In this document: positions 49,688 through 64,000 of the stretch, piece by piece
Layout of the letters: every line of letters starts with the position of its first letter
Position numbering within the stretch: the first letter of the stretch is position 1
Position numbers and translations under genes: made by a program
Notes under the pieces: generated by a model
What the model was told of the DNA's origin: nothing
Seen by the model: only the letters and a program-made list of their open reading frames with translations
Database searches by the model: none
DNA from: an uncultured cyanobacterium
Lineage (GTDB): Bacteria > Cyanobacteriota > Cyanobacteriia > Pseudanabaenales > Pseudanabaenaceae
Reading direction: 5' to 3'
Assembly: GCA_963703315.1 (NCBI GenBank)
Contig: OY969811.1
Location: forward strand, 3,744,001-3,808,000
DNA length: 64,000 bases

Positions 49688-51352
49688 CTAATGTTGCAAC
49701 AAGGCAGAACGAGGAATTACCCGCATAATCTCTTTGATAGTTGTTACTCCTTGTAAGACCTTCTCGATCGCGGCAACTCGAAAGGACTGAAAATCGATAC
49801 TGCGTAGGTAAAGATCTAGTTGCGTCGATGTACCTTCATAAATAATTTGACGCATCGTGTCATTGATTTCTAATAGCTCAATCACTGCTTCACGGCCCAA
49901 GTAACCCGTATGAAAACATTTAGGACATCCTTTGCCTTGTCTGCATTTTTCCAAATTAACTGTAGATCGGTCTAATCCAATCACTTTCAATTCGGCATCA
50001 CTAGGGACATATACTTCTGCACAGTGTGGACAAACACGGCGAACAAGGCGCTGAGCAATCACCCCTAACAAAGCATCACTAACTAGACTTGAGCCAAGAT
50101 CTTTAAGTCGAGGGATAGCACTAGGTGCATCGTTGGTATGCATAGTGGTCAAAACCAAGTGACCAGTCAACGCCGCCCGAATTGCAGTTTCTGCCGTCTC
50201 ACTATCGCGCACTTCGCCCACCATAATAATGTCGGGATCTTGGCGGAGAATTGAGCGTAATCCTGCGGCAAACGTCATACCTGCGGCTTCATTGACTTGG
50301 GTTTGAGTAATATTTGACAAGACATACTCCACAGGATCTTCGACAGTAGTGACATTGACGCTTTTAGAGGCAATTACTTGCAAACTGGTATAGAGCGTGC
50401 TAGTTTTCCCAGAACCAGTGGGACCAGTAAAAATGATCATTCCCTGTGGTTGATGTAGCCAGCTTTCATAGGTTTGACGTGACTTTTCCGTAAATCCTAG
50501 ATCGGCAATACTCGAAAAGGGATTTTCTTGTGGAAGTAACCGAATTACAATTTTTTCTCCATTAACGCAGGGAAGTGTACTAACACGCATATCTAATCCC
50601 TTAGCATGATGGTCGTCACTAGTATATTTTTCACCAATACGCCCATCTTGGGGAATCCGACTTTTGGCAATATCCATTTCTGCCATCACTTTAAGCGCAA
50701 CAATAATTTTGCGGCTAATTGCTAAAGGTAATACTTGAACATCTCGCAAAATACCATCAACACGAAAGCGAATCCGTAATCCTTCTTTGGTTGGCTCTAG
50801 ATGAATATCGCTAGCACGGCTCTGCAAAGCACTAGTAATTATTGCCTTGATACGACTGATTTGATCTGCTGCTTTGGAGAGATGCATTTCTGCTGTCTCT
50901 GCGATCGCCATTGGGGCAAGTTCATCGGCAAAGGGAATGTCTGTCTCTGATAGAGAAATGAGATCGTTGCGAATATTTTGTTTGAGAAACCATTCTTGAT
51001 AACTCTTTTTCGTAATTGATACGACTTCAACAGTCATGTCCATCAAGTTACTAATCCTCTTGATGTCCAGTTCTGAAATTGTCTCAGGAACCCCAATGAA
51101 AAAACATTTTTGCCATAATAGAAGTGGGATAGCCTTTGGTAATCCTGTCTGGTTACGAGCCTGACGCAAGAAGAGTCCACTCAATTCTGTGTCCAGCAAA
51201 TTAATGTTTACACTTCCATCTAAATTAACAAGTCTAGTGATTGCTTCTTCACATGATATTTTGCCAGTTTTAAGTAATTGCCAAGGGGTTGAGGGAACAA
51301 TAGATAAATTAGGTGTGGGGGATTTAGCTTGCATAGTTTCTGATAAGTTCAA
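49688..51352 (-). CDS. GspE/PulE/PilB-family secretion ATPase (ATG at 51334 is an alternative start)
   Basis: ASDIHLEP, PQDGR, GPTGSGKT, EDPVE, LRQDPD, TGHLV, two CxxC. Confidence 0.92.
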   Translation of the reverse strand: MNLSETMQAKSPTPNLSIVPSTPWQLLKTGKISCEEAITRLVNLDGSVNINLLDTELSGLFLRQARNQTGLPKAIPLLLWQKCFFIGVPETISELDIKRISNLMDMTVEVVSITKKSYQEWFLKQNIRNDLISLSETDIPFADELAPMAIAETAEMHLSKAADQISRIKAIITSALQSRASDIHLEPTKEGLRIRFRVDGILRDVQVLPLAISRKIIVALKVMAEMDIAKSRIPQDGRIGEKYTSDDHHAKGLDMRVSTLPCVNGEKIVIRLLPQENPFSSIADLGFTEKSRQTYESWLHQPQGMIIFTGPTGSGKTSTLYTSLQVIASKSVNVTTVEDPVEYVLSNITQTQVNEAAGMTFAAGLRSILRQDPDIIMVGEVRDSETAETAIRAALTGHLVLTTMHTNDAPSAIPRLKDLGSSLVSDALLGVIAQRLVRRVCPHCAEVYVPSDAELKVIGLDRSTVNLEKCRQGKGCPKCFHTGYLGREAVIELLEINDTMRQIIYEGTSTQLDLYLRSIDFQSFRVAAIEKVLQGVTTIKEIMRVIPRSALLQH

Positions 51353-51373
51353 TATGGTTACTTACTAGATTCA

Positions 51374-51400
51374 TTCTGTCGAGTTGATAGGTTCTATGCA
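51374..51400 (-). promoter_or_regulatory. Bipartite motif copy A, upstream of the GspE/PilB ATPase
   Basis: Minus strand TGCATAG-N15-CAGAA. Confidence 0.6.
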
Positions 51401-51502
51401 GACCTTACGAAAAAACTAGCGTCATGCTCATCTAAAATTCGTTATCGCGCCTAGCAAGTAGAAGATGTTTCTACCCATTAACTTGTACTCCTAAAAAAGA
51501 AA

Positions 51503-51558
51503 ATTAGGCAAGTGGTGATGTTTATTGAATTTTCAATAAACATCACCACTTGCCTAAT
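51503..51558. terminator. Long palindrome after the ricin-M23 gene
   Basis: ATTAGGCAAGTGGTGATGTTTATTGAA-tt-TTCAATAAACATCACCACTTGCCTAAT. Confidence 0.7.
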
Positions 51559-51626
51559 CTGTGGAGTAACTTGATGTATATAGTTTGGCTGATGAGAAGC
51601 AGCAAACTTTAAGCTTGCTCAGTATC

Positions 51627-52697
51627 CTAAGGACGTGTGAGGGCTTTTCTAAAGTGATCGTTTACACCAACAACATCTGGTAAATCACCAACTCCTATAA
51701 GCTGAAATCCATTAGCTGCTGTCATGGGGACTGAATTAGCATTACATAATGCATTAGGTCGTCCTTCAATATGAATATGAGAATAGCCACCATTAACAGA
51801 ACTTGCGCGGGAAACAACTCCCAATTGCTGACCAGCATTTACTCTTGCTCCATTAGCTACTTGGCGATCCATGTGACCAATCAATAAAGCACGGTTGTTC
51901 CCAATATCTAAACAAACCAAGTCTCTGTCAACATATCGAGCAGTACCAGCGGACGGAGCTAGAACAGGCTGCCCTGCTGATTTACTAGTATTGCCATCAT
52001 AAGCATAACAACCACTGGAACCAAAATCTTTATTAGTGATTGTGAGATCTAAACCAAAAATACTACGTCCTTTATGGCTAATACCATTGTTCTGATATCC
52101 TTGACAAACAAACCAAGTCTGACCACTTTTAAAAGGCAAGAGAATCTGTCCAGGAGGGGGAGGAACTATCGTTCCTCCGTTAATTTTGAACCTCTGATTC
52201 ACACCAGAATTGCATTGCCAGAGAGTGACTGCACCTCCATCATTACGAGTAGGACTGTCAATGCAGAATCGAACATTATTCCTGATCTCAGAAAGTCTAA
52301 TCTGGACATCACCGTTGGACAGGTTTTCAACATTGAAATTTTGGTCAAGATCATTGGCGTTACAGGGATAAACATTGACCTCAGCCCCATTCCATCGACG
52401 ATAGGCATTTAGGCATTTACCAGTGCTGCGCTGACGTAAAAGTTGACCGCCTCTAGCTCCTTGCAATCTATCAAAGTGTTGATCTGCATCATTAAAGTTG
52501 TGTGTCCAAATAGACATTCTTGGATGCCCGTCAATTAGACGGAAGTTACGATTAGTGTTAAGCGCTTTATTGCTATTATTAATGACAAAAGTTTCGGCAG
52601 ATGCAGCAGCACTGAGAATAGTAACTCCAGCGAGGATCGAAAAAGAACTGGCAACTAGTGCTAAACATTGTTTAGGATTCATAATACCTTTAGCCAT
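51627..52697 (-). CDS. Secreted ricin-B lectin + M23-family peptidase
   Basis: Signal peptide; QxF/CLN/CIDS ricin repeats; H...D (HKGRSIFGLD) and HIH zinc motifs. Confidence 0.8.
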   Translation of the reverse strand: MAKGIMNPKQCLALVASSFSILAGVTILSAAASAETFVINNSNKALNTNRNFRLIDGHPRMSIWTHNFNDADQHFDRLQGARGGQLLRQRSTGKCLNAYRRWNGAEVNVYPCNANDLDQNFNVENLSNGDVQIRLSEIRNNVRFCIDSPTRNDGGAVTLWQCNSGVNQRFKINGGTIVPPPPGQILLPFKSGQTWFVCQGYQNNGISHKGRSIFGLDLTITNKDFGSSGCYAYDGNTSKSAGQPVLAPSAGTARYVDRDLVCLDIGNNRALLIGHMDRQVANGARVNAGQQLGVVSRASSVNGGYSHIHIEGRPNALCNANSVPMTAANGFQLIGVGDLPDVVGVNDHFRKALTRP

Positions 52698-52771
52698 AAT
52701 GATTAATACCTTGAAGTAGATTGAATTAGTTGAAGCAAAATATTAGAGGTGCGATTTTTGAGAGAAAATTG

Positions 52772-53080
52772 TTAGTTAATCCATCGTAGATTTTGAGCTT
52801 GAGAAGAAGAGATGCAAACTACATTTCCATCTTTCTCTCGACATACGACCTGATCGTTTTGAGTAAGAGTTTGCCATTTAGACCAATCGAAAAAGGTTGG
52901 AATAAAACCGACACTCTTATTTTGAGAGGGGTTTTCAATAAGGTTCCCATTAGCATCAGTAAATACAGATTCATCACCACCTCCAGCCAGAGCTTTTGGG
53001 GTATTGAAAATAATGCTAAGAAATCCAATAGATGATAGAAGTAGTAAACTTCTTTTAAGAGATACTTTGTTTGAGTACAT
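52772..53080 (-). CDS. Small secreted hypothetical protein with two Cys
   Basis: Signal peptide ending ALA; SD-like GAGGA upstream. Confidence 0.7.
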   Translation of the reverse strand: MYSNKVSLKRSLLLLSSIGFLSIIFNTPKALAGGGDESVFTDANGNLIENPSQNKSVGFIPTFFDWSKWQTLTQNDQVVCREKDGNVVCISSSQAQNLRWIN

Positions 53081-53160
53081 TCATAGATTCCTCTATATGA
53101 TGGTTAGCAAATTAAATGATTCAATGTTTATGAGTCCTTATTTCAGAACCTACATATTCT

Positions 53161-53186
53161 TTCTGTAAGGATTGAGAAGCTATACA
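53161..53186 (-). promoter_or_regulatory. Bipartite motif copy B
   Basis: Minus strand TGTATAG-N14-CAGAA. Confidence 0.5.
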
Positions 53187-53241
53187 CTGAACTTAAATAT
53201 TTTTTGTTGAGTGGATTTGCTTCATCGCTTACATTTATTTC

Positions 53242-53268
53242 TTCTGTGGAGTTCATGGCACTTATGCA
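53242..53268 (-). promoter_or_regulatory. Bipartite motif copy C
   Basis: Minus strand TGCATAA-N15-CAGAA. Confidence 0.6.
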
Positions 53269-53361
53269 GCGATTAACTAAAAACTTTTTTTACTTGCTTT
53301 GTGAGTTGACAAAAATAGGAGAGTCTACAACCATTGCAGCCTCTCCTATGGGTTTACTAAT

Positions 53362-53571
53362 TTAGCGGAAGCCCTCAATAATGACCAGAATCAAAACTAG
53401 GCAAATCACTATAAACATGGTGCGCCATAGTCCAATTAAAAAGGTGGGTAATATTTCAATAACGATCGCATAGCCACCAAAAACTGTGGGTAAAATAAGA
53501 GCGATCGCTAGTCCTGCGATCGCAAACATCAGAAACTTAAGTAAATGAGGGACAAAACGCAACATAGACAT
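53362..53571 (-). CDS. Small two-TM membrane protein
   Basis: Hydrophobic 69-aa ORF with GGAG SD just upstream. Confidence 0.65.
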   Translation of the reverse strand: MSMLRFVPHLLKFLMFAIAGLAIALILPTVFGGYAIVIEILPTFLIGLWRTMFIVICLVLILVIIEGFR

Positions 53572-53615
53572 AACAACTCCACAGATTGCCTGTTCCGATC
53601 CTTACGAGACTTATA

Positions 53616-53641
53616 TTCTGAGAGGTTATGGTTTTATTGCA
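53616..53641 (-). promoter_or_regulatory. Bipartite motif copy D
   Basis: Minus strand TGCAATA-N14-CAGAA. Confidence 0.5.
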
Positions 53642-53670
53642 TTGCTGATTGAGGCTAATTTGAACCCTAC

Positions 53671-53697
53671 TGCATAAAAGGCGATCGCTGATCAGAA
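53671..53697 (+). promoter_or_regulatory. Bipartite motif copy E, upstream of the sigma-like gene
   Basis: TGCATAA-N15-CAGAA. Confidence 0.6.
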
Positions 53698-53748
53698 TAT
53701 GTAGATGTATAGCTAGAGCGATCGCTTGTTAGCTAAAATATTAGTAAT

Positions 53749-55239
53749 ATGCGATCGCTACAGTCAGTCATTTTTGAGCAGGGAAAGCGCATGAGCTTAG
53801 CAAAACGCAGTTTGAGAAAAAAATTTTCAACATTTAAAGGATCGGGATCGGAATGGAGCAGTCCAAATTCAACGCTACTAAAAAATATAGAAAGACTCCT
53901 AAATTTGGAAGACTTTCGTGATGCTAAGGAAGAAACTGTAGCTCTTTATTTCGTAAAGTGCCTGAGTAGTAGCAATGAAAAAGTTGTTGAACTAAGTCGC
54001 CAACACCTAATTGCTTATGCCCAAGAGCATTGCTATCATGCTTGCAAAGAGCTATGCAAGAAATTTAATAAGAACGAAAAAGACGAGATTTTTGAAGATT
54101 GTTTTCAAGCTGGCAATATGGCAATCTGTCAAGTTAATTTCTTTACTAATTACAGACCACAAAGTGGCAATACACTTGGGACTTACATTAGTAACGCAGT
54201 TAAGAAGAAAGCTATTGAAATCTTGACTGGCGGTGGGAATAATGTCAGAAGTAATTGGGGATTATTAGCTATTGTGTCAAAAAAACAAATAAAAGAAATT
54301 TTACCTTTAATCCCAGAAATATCTTCAGGTCGAGAACAGCAAAACTACATTCAAATACACAAATTCTATAAGGAAATTTGCAAACCTTCAAAAACTGGCA
54401 AGAAAAGAGAAAAACCATCTGAACAACAACTTCAAGCAATTTGTGATTGTTTCAATAAAGTTTACCCTCACAAACTACAAACTGAAGAAGCACTAGAAAT
54501 GCTCCGTGATTGTATTGCTGCACTTAGGGAACAACAGAATTTTATTGACTCACGAGGATTAGATGCGCCATTGGGGGGTGAAGATAATAGTACTTTGCTA
54601 ATTGATACTATCTCATACGATAGTGAGCCAAATATTATCGATGAAGGTGATGATTCTTACTTCGGATCAATTCGTGAAGGATTAGTTCAGATTGTTGCAC
54701 AAGACTTAGACTCGTTGGACAATGATAAACAAGGAAAATTCACTTTTTTGCATGGATTTGATTGTACGACAACTGAAGTTGCGAATCTTTATAAAGTAAA
54801 TCAATCAACTATCTCAAGGCTTTATAATCCAATTGTTGAGTCCTGCTTAAATTACAGCAAAACTTTTGTTAGTGATTTTACTGATGACACATTCTTAATT
54901 AAGGCTTTACGTGATTGGCTGAAGCAACATCTTGCATTTATTTACACTAGTTTGCTTTATGAAGTTGTCGATTCACTGGTTATGAGTCAATTGCATAAGA
55001 CAGAAATATCTTTTTTGAATGATTTGAGAGTAACTGGGAGGACGGAGCAATTGGCGCAAAATTTGAATCAATCAACAGAATATATAAATGAGGAAAGGAA
55101 AAGATTAAAAGATGCAATTACAGGACTGGTAGTTAATCATTTAAAAACCAATTTTAATATCCTTGCACCACTTTATCCTGTAGCTCCAAAAATTGATGAA
55201 TTTATCGATAAGTGGATGTGCGATCGCCCTACCAACTAA
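53749..55239 (+). CDS. Atypical sigma-70-like factor (cyanobacterial, HetZ-like architecture)
   Basis: Region-2-like EDCFQAG...YRPQSGNTLGTY; region-3.2-like GLDAPLGGED; region-4 HTH TTEVANLYKVNQSTISR. Confidence 0.7.
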   Translation: MRSLQSVIFEQGKRMSLAKRSLRKKFSTFKGSGSEWSSPNSTLLKNIERLLNLEDFRDAKEETVALYFVKCLSSSNEKVVELSRQHLIAYAQEHCYHACKELCKKFNKNEKDEIFEDCFQAGNMAICQVNFFTNYRPQSGNTLGTYISNAVKKKAIEILTGGGNNVRSNWGLLAIVSKKQIKEILPLIPEISSGREQQNYIQIHKFYKEICKPSKTGKKREKPSEQQLQAICDCFNKVYPHKLQTEEALEMLRDCIAALREQQNFIDSRGLDAPLGGEDNSTLLIDTISYDSEPNIIDEGDDSYFGSIREGLVQIVAQDLDSLDNDKQGKFTFLHGFDCTTTEVANLYKVNQSTISRLYNPIVESCLNYSKTFVSDFTDDTFLIKALRDWLKQHLAFIYTSLLYEVVDSLVMSQLHKTEISFLNDLRVTGRTEQLAQNLNQSTEYINEERKRLKDAITGLVVNHLKTNFNILAPLYPVAPKIDEFIDKWMCDRPTN

Positions 55240-55283
55240 AACCTAACTTTTTATTTAATTTTATCTAAACAAAACTGAGGTAT

Positions 55284-56744
55284 ATGATGTTAATTCTAAA
55301 AAATGGGCTTGAACTTGAATCTATTCTCGAAGACCAGATATGTTTATCTATTCCTAAAGAATATCAAACAGAAATATGGGATAAACTACAAGGATATTCC
55401 TATCCTACGGCAAAGTGGACAGCTTATCTCAATCGCTTGACTTTAGAGTTTATAATTCCATACTTTAAACAAACCTATGATTGTGAAATAGCACTGGCTC
55501 CAATTCCTAGAAATCCTGATAGTGTTTGGGAATATGTGACAGGCTTTGCGCTGACGATTGACGGTAACCGGGTAATCGTGATTCCTGATGAGACTGATAG
55601 TGATGAGTTTGAGATCCCCTTTGAATGGGTTGATATTCCTTCATGGGCTGGGGAATATTATCTAGCGGTGCAGATCCGTCCTGATAATGGTTGGTTGAGA
55701 GTCTTTGGCTTTACGACACATCAGCAGATTAAACAGAAAGCTGAGTATGACTCTGTGATGAAGACTTACACTTTGTCGCAGGAGCAAATCATTGATGATA
55801 TGGAGGTTTTGTTGACATCATTGGCGATCGCCTCTAACCAAAAAGTAGCAGTCCCCGCACTGACAGTGATCGCCACACCTCAACAGAATCAATATCTGAA
55901 TACTCTTAAACAGCCTAAATTATATTCTCCTCGCCTTGAGCTATCCGCCGAGCATTGGGCAACCGTTGTCAGTGATGATGACTTGCGGGAGAGACTATGG
56001 CAGATGAGAATAATTGAATCATCACGATCGCAGAAAATTGTGCAACAAAAAACAACTTGGCTAAGTCTATTGCGTGAAAAGCAGAAAGTATATGGGGCTT
56101 ACTTTGCTGATGAATTCATGAGAACTAAGGAAGAAATTGCGGCACTATTTAATATTGAACCAGAATTGCAACTTGTAAGGTCAGTAAGACGATCAACGTC
56201 AACTATTGATAACTCAGAGAGAGTTGCAGAATTAATTGCTTGGGATAAATCGGAATCTGATCTAGGTATTAGGCTTGACTTCTTAAAACTCTTAGCAAAA
56301 GTGGGTGAAGGCAGTAATGCAGCAATTGAGTACTTCAGTTCAATACAAGAAAATGAGACAGAGGATCTAACAATTCGCCGTGAGGCTGCAATTTGCTTGA
56401 GTGAGATTGATCCATCTCATCGTAATGCTGGTATCAGGCGGGTACAATTGATCGATATTACTTATCGACTTAAAGATATCAAGCTTTCTTTAGAAGTGAC
56501 GATGATCCCATTTACTCAAGATAGAGCGCACGTTCACTTTCGTTTAACTGCACCAGAAGAAAGTTCTTTGCCAGATGGTCTTGTTTTGGCAGCGATCGAC
56601 CTTGATAGTGATGTAATCTTTGAAGAACATAGTGGAGAATCAGATCCATTTTTGGAGAGAAGTCTTGATGAAGAATATGGTGGATATTTCTACATCAAAA
56701 TAAGTCTTGATGGTGTCAGCGTTCGGTCAGACTTTAGAGTTTAG
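55284..56744 (+). CDS. DUF1822-family protein with HEAT-like insert
   Basis: WTAYLNRL; EIPFEWVDIPSWAGEYYLAVQI; GFTTHQQIK. Confidence 0.8.
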   Translation: MMLILKNGLELESILEDQICLSIPKEYQTEIWDKLQGYSYPTAKWTAYLNRLTLEFIIPYFKQTYDCEIALAPIPRNPDSVWEYVTGFALTIDGNRVIVIPDETDSDEFEIPFEWVDIPSWAGEYYLAVQIRPDNGWLRVFGFTTHQQIKQKAEYDSVMKTYTLSQEQIIDDMEVLLTSLAIASNQKVAVPALTVIATPQQNQYLNTLKQPKLYSPRLELSAEHWATVVSDDDLRERLWQMRIIESSRSQKIVQQKTTWLSLLREKQKVYGAYFADEFMRTKEEIAALFNIEPELQLVRSVRRSTSTIDNSERVAELIAWDKSESDLGIRLDFLKLLAKVGEGSNAAIEYFSSIQENETEDLTIRREAAICLSEIDPSHRNAGIRRVQLIDITYRLKDIKLSLEVTMIPFTQDRAHVHFRLTAPEESSLPDGLVLAAIDLDSDVIFEEHSGESDPFLERSLDEEYGGYFYIKISLDGVSVRSDFRV

Positions 56745-56753
56745 AGGTGTATT

Positions 56754-59270
56754 ATGAAAAGAATCTTTCAAAGCATATCAACTCTGTGGCAAAAATCTTT
56801 TGCTGGTTCTAGCTCACCATCACAAATTTTTCTAGGTTTGAAGGGTGAAGATGTTTTAGAATCGCCCAAAAATCCAAATGAGACTAAAAGTTTATCAGTT
56901 TCATTGTATGAGGGGCATTCTAGGATTATTGAAGATATTAACTTGCCTATTACAAAAGAGCTTTTGGATGTTATCAAACAATTTCCTACTCTTTTGGAAG
57001 GAAGAAATTCAGGCACTCCTAGAAAAGCTAAATCAACTGAAAACGAACAGACTAGCAGTAAGCAAACTGATGCCAGTAGTTCGTCTGATAAAATTGCTGA
57101 AAGGTTAGAGAATGTGATCAATGAATTAACTACTGGTCACAAGGGATTCAGAATAGTAAGAGATAAAATTCGTGACAAATTAGTTAATAGTCAATTGGCT
57201 TATAGTCTGCCACAACCAGAGTTTTTCATTCAATATAAAGATCCCAATATTGCTCAAATTCCATTCCATAAGTGGGAAATCTTAGAATCATTTGAGATCG
57301 AGCCTGTGTTTAGTGAATTTAATGTTAAACTTTGTGATCATTCTTACAGCAAGAGAAAAAATCCTCGCATCCTGATTGTTTTAGGTAATGCGTACAATCA
57401 TGGACAAGATAATCTTAACTTACAGGCTGATATTGAAGAATGGAAAGCTGATTCTCTACCTAATGTGGATATAACAACTATTACACCTTTGAATTATAAA
57501 GATATCGATTCTCAATTATGGGAAAAGAAATGGGACATTTTATATTTTGCAGGTCACAGTGATACTAAAAATGGTGAAACTCTGATTGAGCTTAATAACG
57601 AATTTAAAATAAGTTTAAAAAAACTGCAAGAGGGTCTAAAGATAGCAGTAAAGAAGGGCTTAAAATTAGCTATTTTCAATTCCTGCGTGAGTTTAGGGGC
57701 AGCAGCCGACCTACATCAAGCTGGTGTGCCAGCAGTTATAGCTATGCGTTATGCGATCCCTGATACTGTTGCTCATACTTTTCTGAAATTCTTCTTGCAA
57801 GAACATTTAAACGGAGGTAAATCGGTTAGTGCGGCAGTACAAAGAGTTAGAAAACGTTTTAAAGGGCTTGAAGATCAAGGTGATAAAACCTATATATTCG
57901 CTAGTTGGTTGCCTGTTGTTTTTCAAATTCCTAGTATTGCAAATCCTCCTAGAACTTCGCTGTTGCCAGTAATTGCCACCTCATTTTTTGTAACTTGCCT
58001 AGTTTTCTTTCTCCATACACAAGGCATATTTCAAGGAGCCGAGCTATCTCTATACGATCACATGATGAACTCTCGACCTGCCGAACCTCTCAATCCCAAT
58101 ATAATATTAGTGAAGCCAACACTAGCTGATCAAGTATGGCAGAAAGAACAAGGTGAACAATTGCAGGGGGATGAATCAATAGGTGATAAACATTTATGGA
58201 AACTACTGGAGAAATTAGATGAAGCGAAACCAAGAGTGATTGGTATGGCTCTTTGGCGAGGGTATTCAAAATCCGTAGATCCTGAGAGTAAAAAAAGAAT
58301 TGATAATAGGTTAGCAAGTACTCAATCGCCAATTTTAGTTTCTAATTGTGCAACTAGAACCAAAAATGATGAGCCAGATCGGCTTCCTCCTGAAACTATC
58401 AAACTTGGTCATCCTCATATTGGATTTACAAATTTTTCCATTGATAGATATTTTGACAATACCCTGAGAAGATTAGTATTGATTAGAAGAGATGATCAGA
58501 GTGCTTGCAGTAAACTCACCAATATTTCTTTCCCATTTCAAATTGTCTTAGACTATCTAGGAATATCATTTCAAGAAGTAATAGATGGATTAAAACCTTT
58601 AGAAGGGAAAGTAAGCATTGAGATGAAAGGTGTTTATCTTTCCAATATTACAACAAAGCAAGGTGGGTATCAAGTTAATCCTTCAGATGAAGGATTATCA
58701 AATCAACTAACAATTCTTTTTAATTACAAAAATCATGATGGTTACAGTCCCGATACAGATTACAACCAAATTTTTTCCTTAAAAGAAATTCTTTCCCTTG
58801 ACAAAGAATCATTGAAAGACATGGTTCACGATAAGATAGTTGTAATTGGTGGTTCTGGAGAAGAATCATTTAATTTCCCTTCCAGTAAGAGCAACATTAA
58901 ATCTATTGCACATTCATATGTTCATATTCAAGCTATTGATTATTTGTTGAGAATTTTTAATTCTAAAGGAGCCAAGATATTAGATATTCTCAAAAATAAT
59001 CTATTTCTTTTTTTGTATAGCTTACTTTATATATCGTTTGTATCAATTATCCTACAAATGATAATTCATAAGTTTGATAAACATCAATTTATTTCTTTGT
59101 CCATAGCAATTTTACTCGCCACGCTTATCATTTTTTATACTCATCAAATTATTTTGGCAAAATTATTATTATGGATTCCCTCTATACCAATACTATGGGG
59201 TATTATAGTCTCCAGTTTTGTTCTATCTTTTTACAAATTTATAAACATCTACTACAATAGAAATAATTAG
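56754..59270 (+). CDS. CHAT-TM-CHASE2-3TM membrane protein
   Basis: IPFHKW, catalytic YFAGHS and IFNSC; TM; ELSLYD...RP, PRVIG, LRRLVL, DKIVVIG CHASE2 motifs; three C-terminal TMs. Confidence 0.85.
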   Translation: MKRIFQSISTLWQKSFAGSSSPSQIFLGLKGEDVLESPKNPNETKSLSVSLYEGHSRIIEDINLPITKELLDVIKQFPTLLEGRNSGTPRKAKSTENEQTSSKQTDASSSSDKIAERLENVINELTTGHKGFRIVRDKIRDKLVNSQLAYSLPQPEFFIQYKDPNIAQIPFHKWEILESFEIEPVFSEFNVKLCDHSYSKRKNPRILIVLGNAYNHGQDNLNLQADIEEWKADSLPNVDITTITPLNYKDIDSQLWEKKWDILYFAGHSDTKNGETLIELNNEFKISLKKLQEGLKIAVKKGLKLAIFNSCVSLGAAADLHQAGVPAVIAMRYAIPDTVAHTFLKFFLQEHLNGGKSVSAAVQRVRKRFKGLEDQGDKTYIFASWLPVVFQIPSIANPPRTSLLPVIATSFFVTCLVFFLHTQGIFQGAELSLYDHMMNSRPAEPLNPNIILVKPTLADQVWQKEQGEQLQGDESIGDKHLWKLLEKLDEAKPRVIGMALWRGYSKSVDPESKKRIDNRLASTQSPILVSNCATRTKNDEPDRLPPETIKLGHPHIGFTNFSIDRYFDNTLRRLVLIRRDDQSACSKLTNISFPFQIVLDYLGISFQEVIDGLKPLEGKVSIEMKGVYLSNITTKQGGYQVNPSDEGLSNQLTILFNYKNHDGYSPDTDYNQIFSLKEILSLDKESLKDMVHDKIVVIGGSGEESFNFPSSKSNIKSIAHSYVHIQAIDYLLRIFNSKGAKILDILKNNLFLFLYSLLYISFVSIILQMIIHKFDKHQFISLSIAILLATLIIFYTHQIILAKLLLWIPSIPILWGIIVSSFVLSFYKFINIYYNRNN

Positions 59271-59306
59271 TTATCCTTGACACGAGACTACATCTAAAAT
59301 AATTCT

Positions 59307-60134
59307 ATGGCTAGTAACATTTTCAAATTTCTTACTAAACACCCAACTGCCATCAAAATTCTATGTGTATCGATATACATGATTTTATTCAGTTTTATAC
59401 TAACTAAAGAAGATACTTTTGCAAATAAGAAGACCAAACCTTCACGTAGTCTACCAATTAAGTCAGTCGTATCAGATGGAAGCCAAGGTAGAACAAGAGG
59501 TGAATGCTTGATTATCCCAATCATTCCAATAACCGAAGTATCTATTACTCATTTGTCTAATCCGTTTATTTGGGTGTATGTAGTACCGCCCAAAACAACA
59601 AGTAATAATGAGCGGGCTAAGGTAGATATATTCTATTCTGATTCCAATCAAACTATAGGTTCAGAACCACAGTATATTAATACTAATGAGCCACAGTTCC
59701 TTAGATTCCAGATCCCTATTACCAGAAAGAAAGAACTTCAAAATAAACTGGAAGTAGATAAAGAGTATGATTTCAACATTAGATGTAATGGAGATGGCAA
59801 CTCTATCATTGTAGCAGTTCAGAAAAAGAATAGTAATATTTCGTTTGCTAATCTGCCATTAGATAAGCGCGTAGTAGAATTTAGCAAGCAGACTTGGTGG
59901 GCTGAGACTGTAGATGCTCTGTTTGATAAAGAATTTTTATGTAAAGATAAACCAAACACAGTAGAGCTATTTGATGATCTTGTTCGTAATAAGCTACTAA
60001 TTGAAGATGTATTCAATAAACCAGTTCGAGCAATAGCAGCAAATCCTACTGAAGATGTTGATATTGTGAATATTGATAGGATGGTTAGAACATTCAATGA
60101 AGCCTATTCTAAGAAGATCTGTATCCCAAAGTAA
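59307..60134 (+). CDS. DUF928-like exported protein
   Basis: N-terminal hydrophobic segment; GRTRGEC, THLSNPFIWVYV, WWAETVDAL. Confidence 0.65.
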   Translation: MASNIFKFLTKHPTAIKILCVSIYMILFSFILTKEDTFANKKTKPSRSLPIKSVVSDGSQGRTRGECLIIPIIPITEVSITHLSNPFIWVYVVPPKTTSNNERAKVDIFYSDSNQTIGSEPQYINTNEPQFLRFQIPITRKKELQNKLEVDKEYDFNIRCNGDGNSIIVAVQKKNSNISFANLPLDKRVVEFSKQTWWAETVDALFDKEFLCKDKPNTVELFDDLVRNKLLIEDVFNKPVRAIAANPTEDVDIVNIDRMVRTFNEAYSKKICIPK

Positions 60135-60192
60135 AGAATATACAAATAAAATCAGGTAGATTACAAGATTTGTGACTACCTAATTTTATTTA

Positions 60193-61470
60193 CTACCAAG
60201 GGTTCCCGATGAGTGTAAAGGCGCTCCACGAAGATGGATGAGATAGCTTTGGATCTTTGGATAGACTAAGGCTAAGTTGCGTATTTTTTAAAGCATTGGC
60301 TTTGATGATTTTAGTATTAAATTTAAGTTCTTGATATAACTTTTCCATAAAAACAGGGGATTCTTTATCTCCTATTTTCCATAAAGTGCCAATTACAGAC
60401 TGTACACCTATTCTTGCAGCTAATCCTGCAAATCCCTGTTCTGATTTGATATTGCCTTGAGCCGTTTGACAAGCACTAAGAACAAGCATAGCTACTGTAG
60501 GATTATTCCAATTAAATTGACGAATCTCATTAAAACTAAATGAACCATTTTTAAAGTATATTTCTCCAATCCCATTTGTCTCATTAAATTTAGCATGAGT
60601 GGCTAGATGAATAAGACCAAATCCAATCGGATTATATAATTTGTCTTTTACTTGCTCAATATCTTGATTTAAATTTTGTTGTGTCATCCATATTTTAGTA
60701 ATCTTGGTTAGCTCTTCTGGAACACCAGGTAACTGCGTTTGTGATATGGGTTTTTCAAATCTAGACGCTCCAATTGCTAGGAGATTTTTATCGTGTATGC
60801 TAGAGAGCCTTGTATCAGTTAAAGATAAGCTTGGCATTACCCCAACGCTGTAATCCGAAATAATATAATTATTCTGTTCATTGATCAAAGCAGCAAATGG
60901 TGTTTGTCGTAATGCATCAGGTAAGACAAGAGTGAGATTATCAATAGCTTGATTTTTTAAAGAATCATATAATGGCTTGATGAGCCATCGGTATAATTGC
61001 TTAGAGGAATCTATATGCTTTGTTTGATTTCTAGGATTGTAGTTAGATATATTTGTTCTGAAATTCTCGACACGATCTTTTAAATCCTTTCTGCGGATAT
61101 ATTGACCAGAATCTTTAACAGGAATATACGCAGGTTTGCCTTTGGCGGTTACTAGGGTTAGTTCTAGAATATCGCAAGAGTCAACGTCTTTAGTAGTTTC
61201 TAGCTTGACTGGTTCAGGATATGGGAGGGTGGAATTAATTGGAGGATTGTAACAAGGATCTTTAGGATCGCGTTGCGCCTTCCGATCGCCCATTCGATCA
61301 GGAAGGAAAGTTACATAGAGTAAAGCAGGATTCACTCCAGTTTCATTTTGCACACGGCGCAAGGTTTCTTGGATTTCTGCAAGTGTCATCACCTTAACTG
61401 GTTTGAGATCGGGAATAGAGTCGCTGAAAAACTTTTCAAACTCTCTGGTGTAAAACTCTTCGGGGGGAAG
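60193..61470 (-). CDS. CHAT domain; C-terminal part of a haemagglutinin-CHAT fusion split by a frameshift
   Basis: LYRWLIKP, PFAAL, catalytic IHLATHA and LVLSACQTA, GTLW, WSAFTLIGNPW; frame is open upstream of the called GTG as PEEFYTREFEKFF. Confidence 0.8.
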   Translation of the reverse strand, partial: LPPEEFYTREFEKFFSDSIPDLKPVKVMTLAEIQETLRRVQNETGVNPALLYVTFLPDRMGDRKAQRDPKDPCYNPPINSTLPYPEPVKLETTKDVDSCDILELTLVTAKGKPAYIPVKDSGQYIRRKDLKDRVENFRTNISNYNPRNQTKHIDSSKQLYRWLIKPLYDSLKNQAIDNLTLVLPDALRQTPFAALINEQNNYIISDYSVGVMPSLSLTDTRLSSIHDKNLLAIGASRFEKPISQTQLPGVPEELTKITKIWMTQQNLNQDIEQVKDKLYNPIGFGLIHLATHAKFNETNGIGEIYFKNGSFSFNEIRQFNWNNPTVAMLVLSACQTAQGNIKSEQGFAGLAARIGVQSVIGTLWKIGDKESPVFMEKLYQELKFNTKIIKANALKNTQLSLSLSKDPKLSHPSSWSAFTLIGNPW

Positions 61471-63998
61471 GGGGCGCGATCGCCTTCATCTACCCACTGC
61501 ACTCTAGGCGGCTCTTTGAGTGGCTGTGTTGCTAAGAAAATCGTGAAATTTGGGGCGGTGATAATCTGGATATTACCCTGTGTATAGGGACCTGGAAACG
61601 ATCGCGCTGTAAAGATGGTGTTTCCTGCGCCAGTAGTCAGAACTCCATCAGTTCCATTAATCAAGGAGCTAAAGACATTAAAAGGCTCAAACCTTGTGCC
61701 GCCGTCATGACGAATGATAATCACCCCGTCTCCTGCTGTCCCTGCGGTACTGATACTGGCTACCAATCCATTTTGGTCAATGAAAGTACCACTAATCCTA
61801 ACAAACCGATTCGATGTCAGATCGACAGTCCCGCCAACACCTCCAAACCCTTGAGCATTGATCGCCCCAGTGAATATATCTAAGAGAGGATCGAGGAAGA
61901 TATTACCGCCACTGCCTGATAATCCCACAGCACTGAGAGTTCCAGTTGTGATGGAGGTGAGTGCTTGGATGTTGATGTTACCGCCCGATGTGCCATTGAC
62001 ATTGAGATTGCCTGTATTGACGATGCCCTGTGGTGCTAATAGGGTCAGGCTATTCCCAGCCCCCACCGCAGAGGCGAGGTTGATATCTTGAGTGGTGACG
62101 TTGCCTGTGGCTGCGTTGATGGTGAGATTGGCGGCGGTTCCTGCTTGAATGTTGATGGGCGCAACAATATTAATATCGCCATTGAGGGTGCTGAGGGTGG
62201 AAGTACCTGTAATTGTAGTGGGATTGGAGATCTGCAAGCCATTAGTTGTGTTAATGCCGCCTGACATAGAGATATTGCTGGCATTGAGGCTGATGGTAAT
62301 TAGGCGATCGCTTGCTCCAAGTGCGCCATTGAGATTAATGTTGCCAGTACCAGCATCGAGTGTTAATCCAAAGTTATTTCCAGTCAGACTATTAACAGTT
62401 CCATTGGTGCTAATGTCGCCGTTATTGCTATTGATTGCGATGTTTGTGCCAAGTCTTGTATTGCCCGTGAGTGTTAGTGCTTGACCAGTAGTTGTGATAT
62501 CAGCATTGAGATTAATCCCTACTGGAGATATTAAAGTGGCTGAAGTGTTGAATGTGATCGGAGCAGTAACTGAGATACTGCCAACACTAGCATCACCAAT
62601 GGAAAGCATTACACCAGTAATCGAGGCGATCGCAGTTGATGTCAGGTTAAATGAGTTGGAATCTGTACCACCTAAAACGATATTTCGATTTGCTGAACTA
62701 GGTTTTAAGATGAGAGTATTCGTTCCAGTAATCGGTGCGGTTAAATTGATCTGATCAGCAATCGCTGATACAGCATTACCTCCTGCGGCAAGTCCTCCAT
62801 TGAGTGAGATAGTTCCAGTTCCTGCATTGAGGGTTGATGCTGCTGTAGTAGTTAGCAATGAGTTAAGAGTAATATCGCTATTAGCTGTAGTGATATTGCC
62901 TTTCAGGTTTGTGGTTTGGGCGGCTATCGTCACTCCTGTGAGGGGAGTTGTACTTCCAATTGCTCCTTGTAAGTCAACAGTTCCTGTATTGGCGATTATA
63001 TTGAGAATTTTTGCGCCATCAATGGTACTAGTAAAGGTGATATTTCCGCTATTTATCGCACTAGTATTTAGGGTGACTTGAGGTTGGATTTTAGAAGCCA
63101 AAGATGTATCTAAGTTTGGATTTAGCAATGGATCTAGAATAAATTTGCCATCAAAAGTAATATTTCCTCCTGCTATGCCTAAACTAGAACCTGTGACTAT
63201 GGATTGTACAAAAGTAGGATTACTGGAATCTTGAACAAAATAAGCACCGATAGTTCCATTTCTTGCACTTAGAGAAACATCTCCACCTCTACCAGAATAT
63301 GAGCTAGAGTTTAAGTTAAATACGGTGATATTGCCTTCAGAACTAGTGATATTTATATTACTTGCGGTCTGATTGTTGTTATAACTTACATCTGTGGCGA
63401 TGCCTCCTAGTCCAGTAACGATATCTCCTTTTGCTTCTATTCTCACCGTTCCAGAATTACGGATTGCAGTACTTGCTGCTGCTACGCTTTGACTATCAGC
63501 ACCAGCATCTAAGATAGAGTTACCGTTCATCGTGATAGAGCCATTGGGACTCAATAACTCTATATTGCCTGCCCGAAGACTAACGGCTATATCTGTACTT
63601 TGGGGAAAGGTCTCAACCCCACATTTACCTGCTAATGTAGTTGCACAACTAAACAAGATATTTCCATTATTTGCTTTGACAGATACATCTGCTCCATTAC
63701 CAGATTGAGAAAATGCTCTTAATAGACCCTCAACAGTTACACTTCCTGCGGATTCAATGCTAATTTTCCCAGCATTGCCACCCAATACAGAGGCAGGTGT
63801 AGATATAGAGGAGGCGGTTGTATCAATGGATGTTACCGTAATATTTCCTGTTGTAGTCTTGAGACTAAATGCTCCTGAATCTCTGCCTCCAGAAGTCTGT
63901 AAGCCCCCAGAAGTTGCTGAAGCATTGTTTACATTAAGATTGATATTGTCAAAAGCATTAATAGATACTGCTCCCCCCTGACCACTGGCGGATCTGGT
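61389..63998 (-). CDS. Filamentous-haemagglutinin-like beta-helix exoprotein (partial; starts beyond the window)
   Basis: Gly/Asn/Thr/Ile-rich GGNI.L repeats; frame open to the window end. Confidence 0.85.
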   Translation of the reverse strand, partial: TRSASGQGGAVSINAFDNINLNVNNASATSGGLQTSGGRDSGAFSLKTTTGNITVTSIDTTASSISTPASVLGGNAGKISIESAGSVTVEGLLRAFSQSGNGADVSVKANNGNILFSCATTLAGKCGVETFPQSTDIAVSLRAGNIELLSPNGSITMNGNSILDAGADSQSVAAASTAIRNSGTVRIEAKGDIVTGLGGIATDVSYNNNQTASNINITSSEGNITVFNLNSSSYSGRGGDVSLSARNGTIGAYFVQDSSNPTFVQSIVTGSSLGIAGGNITFDGKFILDPLLNPNLDTSLASKIQPQVTLNTSAINSGNITFTSTIDGAKILNIIANTGTVDLQGAIGSTTPLTGVTIAAQTTNLKGNITTANSDITLNSLLTTTAASTLNAGTGTISLNGGLAAGGNAVSAIADQINLTAPITGTNTLILKPSSANRNIVLGGTDSNSFNLTSTAIASITGVMLSIGDASVGSISVTAPITFNTSATLISPVGINLNADITTTGQALTLTGNTRLGTNIAINSNNGDISTNGTVNSLTGNNFGLTLDAGTGNINLNGALGASDRLITISLNASNISMSGGINTTNGLQISNPTTITGTSTLSTLNGDINIVAPINIQAGTAANLTINAATGNVTTQDINLASAVGAGNSLTLLAPQGIVNTGNLNVNGTSGGNINIQALTSITTGTLSAVGLSGSGGNIFLDPLLDIFTGAINAQGFGGVGGTVDLTSNRFVRISGTFIDQNGLVASISTAGTAGDGVIIIRHDGGTRFEPFNVFSSLINGTDGVLTTGAGNTIFTARSFPGPYTQGNIQIITAPNFTIFLATQPLKEPPRVQWVDEGDRAPFPPKSFTPESLKSFSATLFPISNQLR

Positions 63999-64000
63999 AA

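Follow-up and report, generated by a model that had tools for sequence, protein, structure and literature searches.

A possible receptor-protease cassette for a divergent sigma factor and DUF1822 in cyanobacteria

Near the right-hand end of the 64,000 nt stretch of an uncultured cyanobacterium analyzed here (the window; contig OY969811.1), four genes for a divergent sigma-70-family protein, a DUF1822 protein, a CHAT-CHASE2 receptor-protease and a DUF928 protein face a two-partner secretion (TPS) exoprotein with a CHAT domain of its own. We give a probability of about 0.5 to the reading that this is a conserved cassette in which the cytoplasmic CHAT domain of the CHASE2 receptor frees the sigma factor by cutting DUF1822, and for which DUF928 and the TPS-CHAT protein provide the input from outside. 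In the proposed chain of events CHASE2 would receive a signal from the periplasm in which DUF928 and the exported CHAT protein take part, and would switch on the cytoplasmic CHAT domain; CHAT would cut DUF1822, likely after the arginine in the R299 column by analogy with Arg117 in the HetF/PatU3 system, and the freed sigma factor would take RNA polymerase to its regulon. This interpretation refines a published computational model in a reasonable way, and an analogous system has been shown to work in experiments. The sigma/DUF1822/EACC2-CHAT core is already known as a prediction, and the putative arm formed by DUF928 and the exported CHAT, TpsA and TpsB proteins is the part that we found in no paper. 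In cyanobacteria, HetF-PatU3-HetZ is the only experimentally demonstrated case of a caspase-like protease paired with a sigma factor of its own.

The four-gene core and its recurrence

All four plus-strand genes are co-directional with intergenic gaps of 44, 9 and 36 nt, and the DUF928 gene at the end of the set is separated by a convergence gap of 58 nt from the minus-strand open reading frames (ORFs) 60193-61392 (399 aa) and 61389-64000, the latter continuing past the window. A previous inspection of the letters of the window (the sequence-only reading) had described a tight operon of sigma-like factor, DUF1822, CHAT-TM-CHASE2-3TM and DUF928 facing a haemagglutinin-CHAT gene, and this layout is borne out by the ORFs, the gaps and the Pfam matches.

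The receptor-protease (838 aa; 56754-59270, plus strand) consists of an EACC2-like N-terminus, a CHAT domain (PF12770, residues 242-369), a transmembrane (TM) segment, a CHASE2 domain (PF05226, residues 414-749; 88.4 bits against 26.3) and three further TM segments, with the output domain (CHAT) placed N-terminal to CHASE2. CHASE2 is an extracytoplasmic sensor domain. Since hydropathy places a single segment (402-420) ahead of CHASE2 and the other three (753-771, 784-802 and 808-826) behind it, the CHAT domain would be cytoplasmic if CHASE2 is outside, and the topology agrees with the transmembrane receptor that had been proposed. All 81 of the homologues aligned keep the putative catalytic residues H268 (in AGHS) and C311 (in FNSC). 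Residues 1-200, a stretch that is also conserved, can be aligned with those of 80 homologues, and this copy lacks many of the consensus residues. The C-termini of the homologues vary and include CHASE2, periplasmic-binding, nSTAND-WD40 and pentapeptide-repeat domains.

The sigma-like protein (496 aa; 53749-55239, plus strand) was assigned by the NCBIfam model TIGR02937 and by a family profile. TIGR02937 matches residues 88-365 with E 4e-11 and 42.8 bits against a cut-off of 42.9, and because the match spans this range we regard regions 2 and 4 as present. None of the Pfam sigma families matched the protein, even at E 10. The earlier call of a sigma-70-like factor therefore stands with respect to recognizable regions 2 and 4, but is weaker for this particular copy, which falls 0.1 bit under the cut-off and has no Pfam match. 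Thirty-five relatives from related loci align over the full length, and the alignment shows regions 2 and 4 set apart by a long insert, with extensions at both the N- and the C-terminus. Five long-type relatives reach 91-113 bits on TIGR02937, and the orthologue in the congener G238 (see below) reaches 45.1. A profile of 36 relatives of the long type (A6), built from an alignment without any canonical sigma factor, matches SigF (1l0o_C, E 1e-10), FliA and WhiG among solved structures, and the match to SigF is strong in region 4 and weak in region 2. A preceding alignment (A3) was dropped because a single true group 1/2 sigma factor in it (L151) inflated the matches, and A6 is the rebuilt version. 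The C-terminal extension (54900-55239, residues about 385-496) resembles a second region 4, and two region-4 stretches are found by NCBIfam in a Nostoc relative (L105, 2400-4043).

The neighborhood survey proposed with the sequence-only reading was carried out from two sides. For the DUF1822-anchored set the best match per genus was taken (40 genera, 41 anchors), and 8 kb on each side were analyzed with the profiles made in this work and with Pfam. At 37 of the 41 anchors the next gene upstream, in the same orientation, is sigma-like (21 of the long type and 16 of a short type of 213-255 aa), an EACC2-CHAT gene is present downstream of DUF1822 at 25 of the 41, and CHASE2 is carried by 16 of these 25. 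DUF928 occupies position +2 or +3 after 14 of the 16 CHAT-CHASE2 genes, compared with 0 of the 25 others. These counts show that sigma and DUF1822 form the core pair, that the protease is a frequent third gene and that DUF928 follows CHASE2. Two classes of sigma factor pair with DUF1822: the long-type profile matches SigF and FliA, and the short-type profile matches the extracytoplasmic function (ECF) sigma factor RpoE (2q1z) at E 4e-4.

The DUF928-anchored set started from a seven-sequence alignment and covers the best 80 of 409 relatives, of which 78 had a called anchor and 74 could be judged upstream. The gene next upstream of DUF928 encodes a CHASE2 protein in 68 of the 74 loci, and in 57 a CHAT-CHASE2 protein; further upstream DUF1822 is found in 48 loci and the sigma gene in 41. 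Downstream, a large CHAT gene is located within three genes in 29 of 78 loci and TpsB within four genes in 7, and Pfam identified the genes on this side as TpsA (with the TPS domain), TPR-CHAT and TpsB. It is clear from the two sets that the genes co-occur far beyond chance across cyanobacteria, in agreement with the recurrence that had been asserted.

In five Nostocales loci (L095, L111, L118, L121 and L146) a CHAT gene of about 870-930 aa, the size of a TPR-CHAT protein, takes the sigma position upstream of DUF1822-CHAT-CHASE2-DUF928. Of 201 genomes sampled from the phylum, 127 have a match to DUF1822 itself, often more than one and up to 10 per genome. Weak DUF1822 matches above the Pfam cut-off (E about 1e-5 to 1e-13) also occur in another family of the phylum (f26), in 64 of 73 genomes of 1.6-2.3 Mb.

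DUF1822 as a putative holder of the sigma factor

The DUF1822 protein (486 aa; 55284-56744, plus strand), which we predict to be an anti-sigma-like holder of the sigma factor, matches PF08852 with E 8.6e-62 and 209.8 bits (cut-off 25) over model positions 1-369 of 370. Hydropathy analysis found no hydrophobic segment in DUF1822, in the sigma-like protein or in the 399-aa CHAT ORF; judged from this, the predicted anti-sigma protein is soluble. Searches with the DUF1822 profile gave no relative among solved proteins (best E 0.9) and no usable match in the protein atlas.

Modeling of the sigma-DUF1822 complex, a check asked for by the sequence-only reading, supported binding, with interface scores (ipSAE) of 0.86, 0.85 and 0.79 in three runs and 0.17 for the best control. 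The pLDDT of the partners was 75-78, and at least 50% of the contacts agreed between runs. Of 157 solved complexes 116 reached the mark used for ipSAE, as did 2 of 215 mismatched pairs, a calibration that is only rough, with our own alignments supplied. The predicted interface joins residues 14-218 of DUF1822 with sigma residues 153-180, 202-238, 340-367 (the region-4 helix-turn-helix) and 378-388. This prediction places the N-terminal half of DUF1822 over region 4 and over the insert that separates it from region 2, as would be expected of an anti-sigma factor. On the sigma side conservation is higher in the interface columns than elsewhere (0.50 versus 0.40, a value reached by 8 of 5000 random sets).

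A candidate cut site is found between the sigma-binding half and the C-terminal domain of DUF1822, where the column of residue R299 lies in a 'laf.fRs' motif. The column holds lysine or arginine in 68 of 71 DUF1822 proteins with an EACC2-CHAT gene downstream compared with 4 of 16 without, a contrast that is only a lead because the CHAT-less proteins largely represent one Nostocales-type clade. The column of a control arginine, R96, is conserved in 68 of 71 CHAT-linked and 16 of 16 unlinked proteins. By analogy with PatU3, R299 is likely to be the P1 residue, a candidate that we treat as a lead and not as proof. With a predicted interface and one candidate P1 arginine, the large DUF1822 family gains a testable anti-sigma role.

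The same interface bears on the idea, to our judgment quite improbable, that DUF1822 is a positive partner or scaffold, which either presents the sigma factor to CHAT for trimming (pro-sigma processing) or aids polymerase binding. The N- and C-terminal extensions of the sigma factor and its second region-4-like repeat could be auto-inhibitory, and the DUF1822 N-half is 74-92% identical between congeners against about 34% for the sigma factor, which suits generic docking. However, with the region-4 recognition helix (340-367) and the insert both lying within the predicted interface, promoter binding would be blocked, as reported for PatU3 on sigma(HetZ) (PMC13342950). Moreover, the ECF-type partners of the short class, with their 213-255 aa, can hardly accommodate such extensions and yet pair with DUF1822.

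Envelope signals are known to release sigma factors through destruction of an anti-sigma factor in RseA with DegS/RseP and in systems of the FecR type. The cassette would differ from these in having a soluble predicted anti-sigma protein and, as protease, a cysteine protease of clan CD that is part of the receptor itself. A second known system is the type III-E Craspase, in which Csx29 (TPR-CHAT), activated by RNA-guided Cas7-11, cuts Csx30, a protein with a link to an RpoE-like sigma factor. Common to Craspase and the cassette is a CHAT protease with a substrate tied to a dedicated ECF-like sigma factor, but Craspase is not activated by a membrane receptor. The analogy to Csx29/Csx30 that had been drawn before is one of logic only; DUF1822 has no detectable relative among solved chains. 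Three relatives of the sigma factor (L032, L035 and L065) scored 25.6-30.6 bits on CAS_III-E_sigma, far from its cut-off of 100. General Pfam scans of the ORFs in and beside the cassette found no Cas family, a dedicated CRISPR or Cas scan not having been run.

The core of the cassette has precedents in print. In a computational work, Kaur et al. 2021 (PMC8195603) described EACC2-caspases with variable C-termini, including CHASE2, beside ECF sigma factors and DUF1822, and proposed that sensing leads to caspase activation and then to sigma-driven transcription. These neighborhoods have in common with the cassette the three-gene core, the order of an apparently constant N-terminus, caspase and variable C-terminus, and the proposed signal flow. 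There DUF1822 is named a TPR protein and is given no anti-sigma role, and DUF928, PatU, HetZ and HetF are absent from the main text, which was searched for these names and not for TPS-CHAT or TpsB. The statement in the sequence-only reading that no functional description was known thus has to be withdrawn, since the core had been predicted (PMC8195603) and the HetF-PatU3-sigma(HetZ) switch has been shown experimentally (PMC9457339, PMC13342950).

HetF contains a cytoplasmic CHAT domain, a TM segment and periplasmic TPRs and cleaves PatU3 after Arg117 (Xing et al. 2022, PMC9457339), and PatU3 binds HetZ (Du et al. 2020, PMC7377430). Cryo-EM identified HetZ as an ECF-type sigma factor with the insertions i1, i2 and i3, and PatU3, a potential anti-sigma factor, cross-links to i1, i3 and region 4 of HetZ (Hu et al. 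2026, PMC13342950). The HetF-PatU3-HetZ switch of Anabaena shares with the cassette a TM-tethered cytoplasmic CHAT domain with a periplasmic domain, and an inhibitor gene just downstream of a gene for an ECF-type sigma factor with extras. PatU3 contacts region 4 and the insertions and is cut after an arginine, whereas the counterparts in the cassette are predictions; furthermore HetF has periplasmic TPRs in place of CHASE2, and no DUF928/TPS arm has been described for it.

The HetF model NF045509 gave 25.3 bits on the receptor against a cut-off of 1200, with the match limited to the CHAT part. Comparison of PatU with DUF1822 by hhalign gave a probability of 0.08%, with low power as only two PatU sequences were used, and the DUF1822 hidden Markov model gave E 0.5-0.9 on these two. 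A6 against six HetZ-type sequences gave 5.5% (E 0.007), a weak alignment over region 4 and the C-terminal part. The layout of the sigma factor, with N-terminal extension, insert between regions 2 and 4 and C-terminal extension, is similar to that of HetZ, and a pattern search of the window's sigma family did not find the published HetZ contact residues. HetZ-type genes were located by means of the published contact residues, and in three genomes the HetZ paralogues have no Pfam-detectable DUF1822 adjoining. A Nostocales pair of a 390-aa sigma factor and a 382-aa DUF1822 protein was tried as hetZ-patU and rejected, because the published HetZ residues do not fit it; they fit another gene at offset -5, the paralogues of which are not beside DUF1822. 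At one locus (L043:3906-6716, the same as L158 in G041) the frame of a HetZ-type sigma factor is not closed by a stop codon but continues into a transglutaminase-like membrane protein, with 936-943 aa in all, and the open frame of the orthologue in G020 has 403 aa.

The putative DUF928 and TPS-CHAT arm

The DUF928 protein (275 aa; 59307-60134, plus strand) is a weak member of its family, matching PF06051 with E 8.3e-7; the score was 29.4 bits, or 29.7 when the whole genome was searched, compared with a cut-off of 26. Its N-terminal hydrophobic segment at 14-32 is a putative signal or anchor, and the protein is predicted to be exported. The DUF928 profile found no relative among solved proteins (best E 0.05). 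Most DUF928 proteins have the motif 'P..P...G.P.GR..GGGSRG.C' right after the export signal, of which the window copy has only a degenerate form; the motif could be a processing or recognition site.

On the minus strand opposite DUF928, the C-terminal linker and CHAT domain of the exoprotein extend over 60193-61485 and are represented in the window by the 399-aa ORF from a GTG at 61392. This ORF matches PF12770 with E 3.8e-51, and since its HLATHA and LSAC motifs align to the His and Cys of the family, both CHAT domains of the cassette keep the dyad, as had been noticed from the sequence. The TpsA-type body of the exoprotein, with beta-helix repeats, runs from 61389 to 64000 and on to 66242, past the end of the window, in a 1617-aa ORF with the TPS domain PF05860 (E 8.7e-33). 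It is followed by a divergent gene for a 598-aa TpsB (66358-68154, also past the window end) that matches PF03865 (ShlB) with E 3e-30 together with POTRA_2, so that the locus has the features of a two-partner secretion system. Beyond the TpsB gene lies a gene for a Ser/Thr kinase with TPRs.

The haemagglutinin-CHAT gene of the sequence-only reading is right in family and position, but in the window it is split into two ORFs with a 4-nt overlap by a 1-nt frameshift. The CHAT frame is open upstream of the GTG and there continues the match to a fused homologue, P0007, from residue 1548. A search among longer proteins gave 946 relatives at E <= 1e-10, and nearly all of the best 120 of these, which were inspected, have TPS and CHAT in one chain. 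The best relative, P0007 (1965 aa), is 90% identical to the TPS frame over 397 aa up to '...DEGDR.PFPP', from where the match passes to the CHAT frame. The change of frame, by 1 nt, falls at about 61461-61468 within a run of C (61455-61470, minus strand), and both frames match P0007. In an independent contig of the public run X1 (depth 9), a sample from which this DNA may come, one extra base is present behind 61461, as the sole difference over 61250-61700, and the break is for this reason likely to be an assembly error or a population variant. The organism thus likely makes a single TPS-CHAT exoprotein, and the exoprotein of G238 is intact with 1969 aa. A profile of TPR-CHAT C-termini stopped short of the linker that precedes the GTG, and it was the fused homologues that settled the frameshift.

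The genome holds 5 DUF928, 7 CHASE2 and 22 CHAT matches. A paralogous operon (G000:C1:2679000-2695000, L154) encodes a beta-helix protein, TpsA, TPR-CHAT, DUF928 and a CHASE2-adenylate/guanylate cyclase. The second of the other DUF928 loci has TpsA, TPR-CHAT, DUF928 and a hybrid histidine kinase without CHASE2, the third a TPR protein, DUF928 and TPR-CHAT, and the fourth DUF928 alone. DUF928 is accordingly accompanied by a CHAT gene at four of the five loci, by TPR-CHAT at three and by TPS-CHAT in the window. Most TPR-CHAT proteins begin with a basic and then a hydrophobic stretch, and are therefore probably exported or anchored. In nine further loci (L085, L086, L096, L097, L110, L112, L117, L119 and L122) DUF928 follows CHAT-less CHASE2 proteins of 725-804 aa, and stand-alone AAA_35 proteins precede in L085 and L096, with TPR-CHAT and TpsA downstream in L096 and L117. 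The L085 protein, the one of these nine that was scanned with Pfam, is an AAA_35-CHASE2 fusion. CHASE2 receptors with the DUF928 arm thus feed at least three kinds of output, and DUF928 with the exported CHAT, TpsA and TpsB looks like a portable input arm.

A very unlikely alternative is that two unrelated systems are simply neighbors, a sigma/DUF1822/receptor-protease operon and a two-partner secretion system with a CHAT-tipped exoprotein that acts on its own outside the cell, for instance in adhesion or competition, with DUF928 belonging to secretion only. In this genome DUF928 stands with a CHAT gene at four of five loci but with CHASE2 at two of five, and many sigma-DUF1822-CHAT loci have no TPS genes nearby, both as expected for separate systems. 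Against this, DUF928 is in most loci the next gene on the same strand after CHAT-CHASE2 (with the contrast of 14/16 to 0/25 given above), the set of TpsA, TPR-CHAT and DUF928 accompanies CHASE2 proteins with three different outputs, and the six-gene set has moved together between congeners.

The ligands of CHASE2, a common sensor domain, are poorly known, and CHASE2 here gains a candidate periplasmic partner set, DUF928 and exported CHAT, that travels with several output domains. We also consider, as a doubtful extension of the proposed cassette, an envelope protease relay in which DUF928 and the TpsB-exported CHAT would be a portable ligand module for CHASE2 with interchangeable outputs (a cyclase, an AAA_35 ATPase or an anti-sigma-removing CHAT). 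If true, a caspase-like cut outside the cell would be answered by a caspase-like cut inside and a change of sigma factor. In our literature search no paper linked the DUF928/TPS-CHAT arm to CHASE2 and none paired CHASE2 with 'CHAT domain'; one CHASE2-DUF928 cluster has been noted in Nostoc punctiforme (PMC5587647). We consider the DUF928/TPS-CHAT input arm to be the part most worth testing.

Several observations weigh against the proposed release of the sigma factor by the receptor-protease and against its input arm. At 16 of the 41 DUF1822 anchors the sigma-DUF1822 pair has no adjacent CHAT gene, showing that the pair can work without CHAT. The DUF1822 side of the predicted interface is not more conserved than the rest of the protein (0.29 versus 0.35, reached by 4904 of 5000 random sets), and comparison of this genome with G238 gives 81% identity for the DUF1822 interface but 37% for the sigma interface, a poor fit to a tight co-evolving interface. 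The R299 contrast may reflect descent. The HetF precedent is one of analogy and not of homology, considering the probabilities of 0.08% for PatU and 5.5% for HetZ. Regarding the arm, CHASE2 lies beside only two of the five DUF928 genes of this genome, the window DUF928 is very divergent (14-22% identity to 15 other DUF928 proteins), and the DUF928-anchored sample leans towards the cassette, because the best 80 are those most like one cassette-derived query.

Distribution among congeners and surroundings of the locus

Among congeners the cassette is patchy. Of 40 other congeners 16 yielded DUF1822 matches, for the most part to the short type, and the sigma factor of the window had no relative at E <= 1e-10 in the 30 other genomes searched, including 0 of 18 congeners. 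In the congener G238 all six genes are present in an identical order, at another place on the chromosome. The identity to G238 is about 75-80% for TpsB, 68% for TpsA and 64% for DUF1822 (N-half 74-92%, C-half 28-64%), but 34% for the sigma factor, 36% for CHAT-CHASE2 and 23-29% for DUF928. At the nucleotide level, similarity to G238 (L153, G238:C2) is absent over the body of the sigma gene (53800-55220) and over 56750-60810, with segments of 70-86% identity around them; the second of these divergent blocks extends from the C-half of DUF1822 through CHAT-CHASE2 and DUF928 to the CHAT domain of the exoprotein. The G+C content is 32-39% at 53-61 kb (the cassette) compared with 42-45% in the flanks and the TpsA body. 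In 11 Nostoc-type loci, on the other hand, all seven genes diverge evenly with median identities of 84-89%. A generally diversifying or hypervariable system was for this reason ruled out, and the G238 mosaic is taken to be local and not a property of the system.

This distribution is relevant for the reading that is in print (PMC8195603), namely a conflict or programmed-death system of the type of Kaur et al., in which the EACC2-caspase processes itself upon a stimulus, the sigma factor drives a defense or suicide program and DUF1822 is an adaptor and not a substrate. We regard it as unlikely for the cassette, although the patchiness within the genus (16/40 congeners for DUF1822 and 0/18 for the window sigma), the different sites in two congeners, the mosaic and the G+C content below that of the flanks all suit it. 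The even divergence of the 11 Nostoc-type loci looks like vertical descent and not like diversifying conflict, Pfam scans found no nuclease, TIR or pore effector domain in the cassette, and the R299 pattern and the predicted sigma-DUF1822 interface better fit a substrate or inhibitor role for DUF1822, as in the cassette model that we prefer.

In the source annotation the labels are limited to 'sigma-70 family RNA polymerase sigma factor' and 'DUF1822 family protein'. A scan of 52500-64000 with Rfam gave no match above threshold, and the listing of public runs that contain the sequence named no RNA run. Promoter-like sites numbered 39 compared with 31 +/- 4.5 in shuffles and terminator-like sites 4 compared with 4.6, rates that are uninformative. 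Upstream of the cassette, on the minus strand at 49688-52697, there are genes for a T2SSE-type secretion ATPase (554 aa) and a ricin-B lectin/M23 peptidase protein (356 aa), both absent from the flank of the G238 copy. Between these and the sigma gene, and divergent from the latter, a 69-aa ORF with two hydrophobic segments (53362-53571, minus strand) lies in a stretch that blastn finds 78-86% nucleotide-identical to G238, and this ORF may encode a small membrane protein belonging to the cassette.

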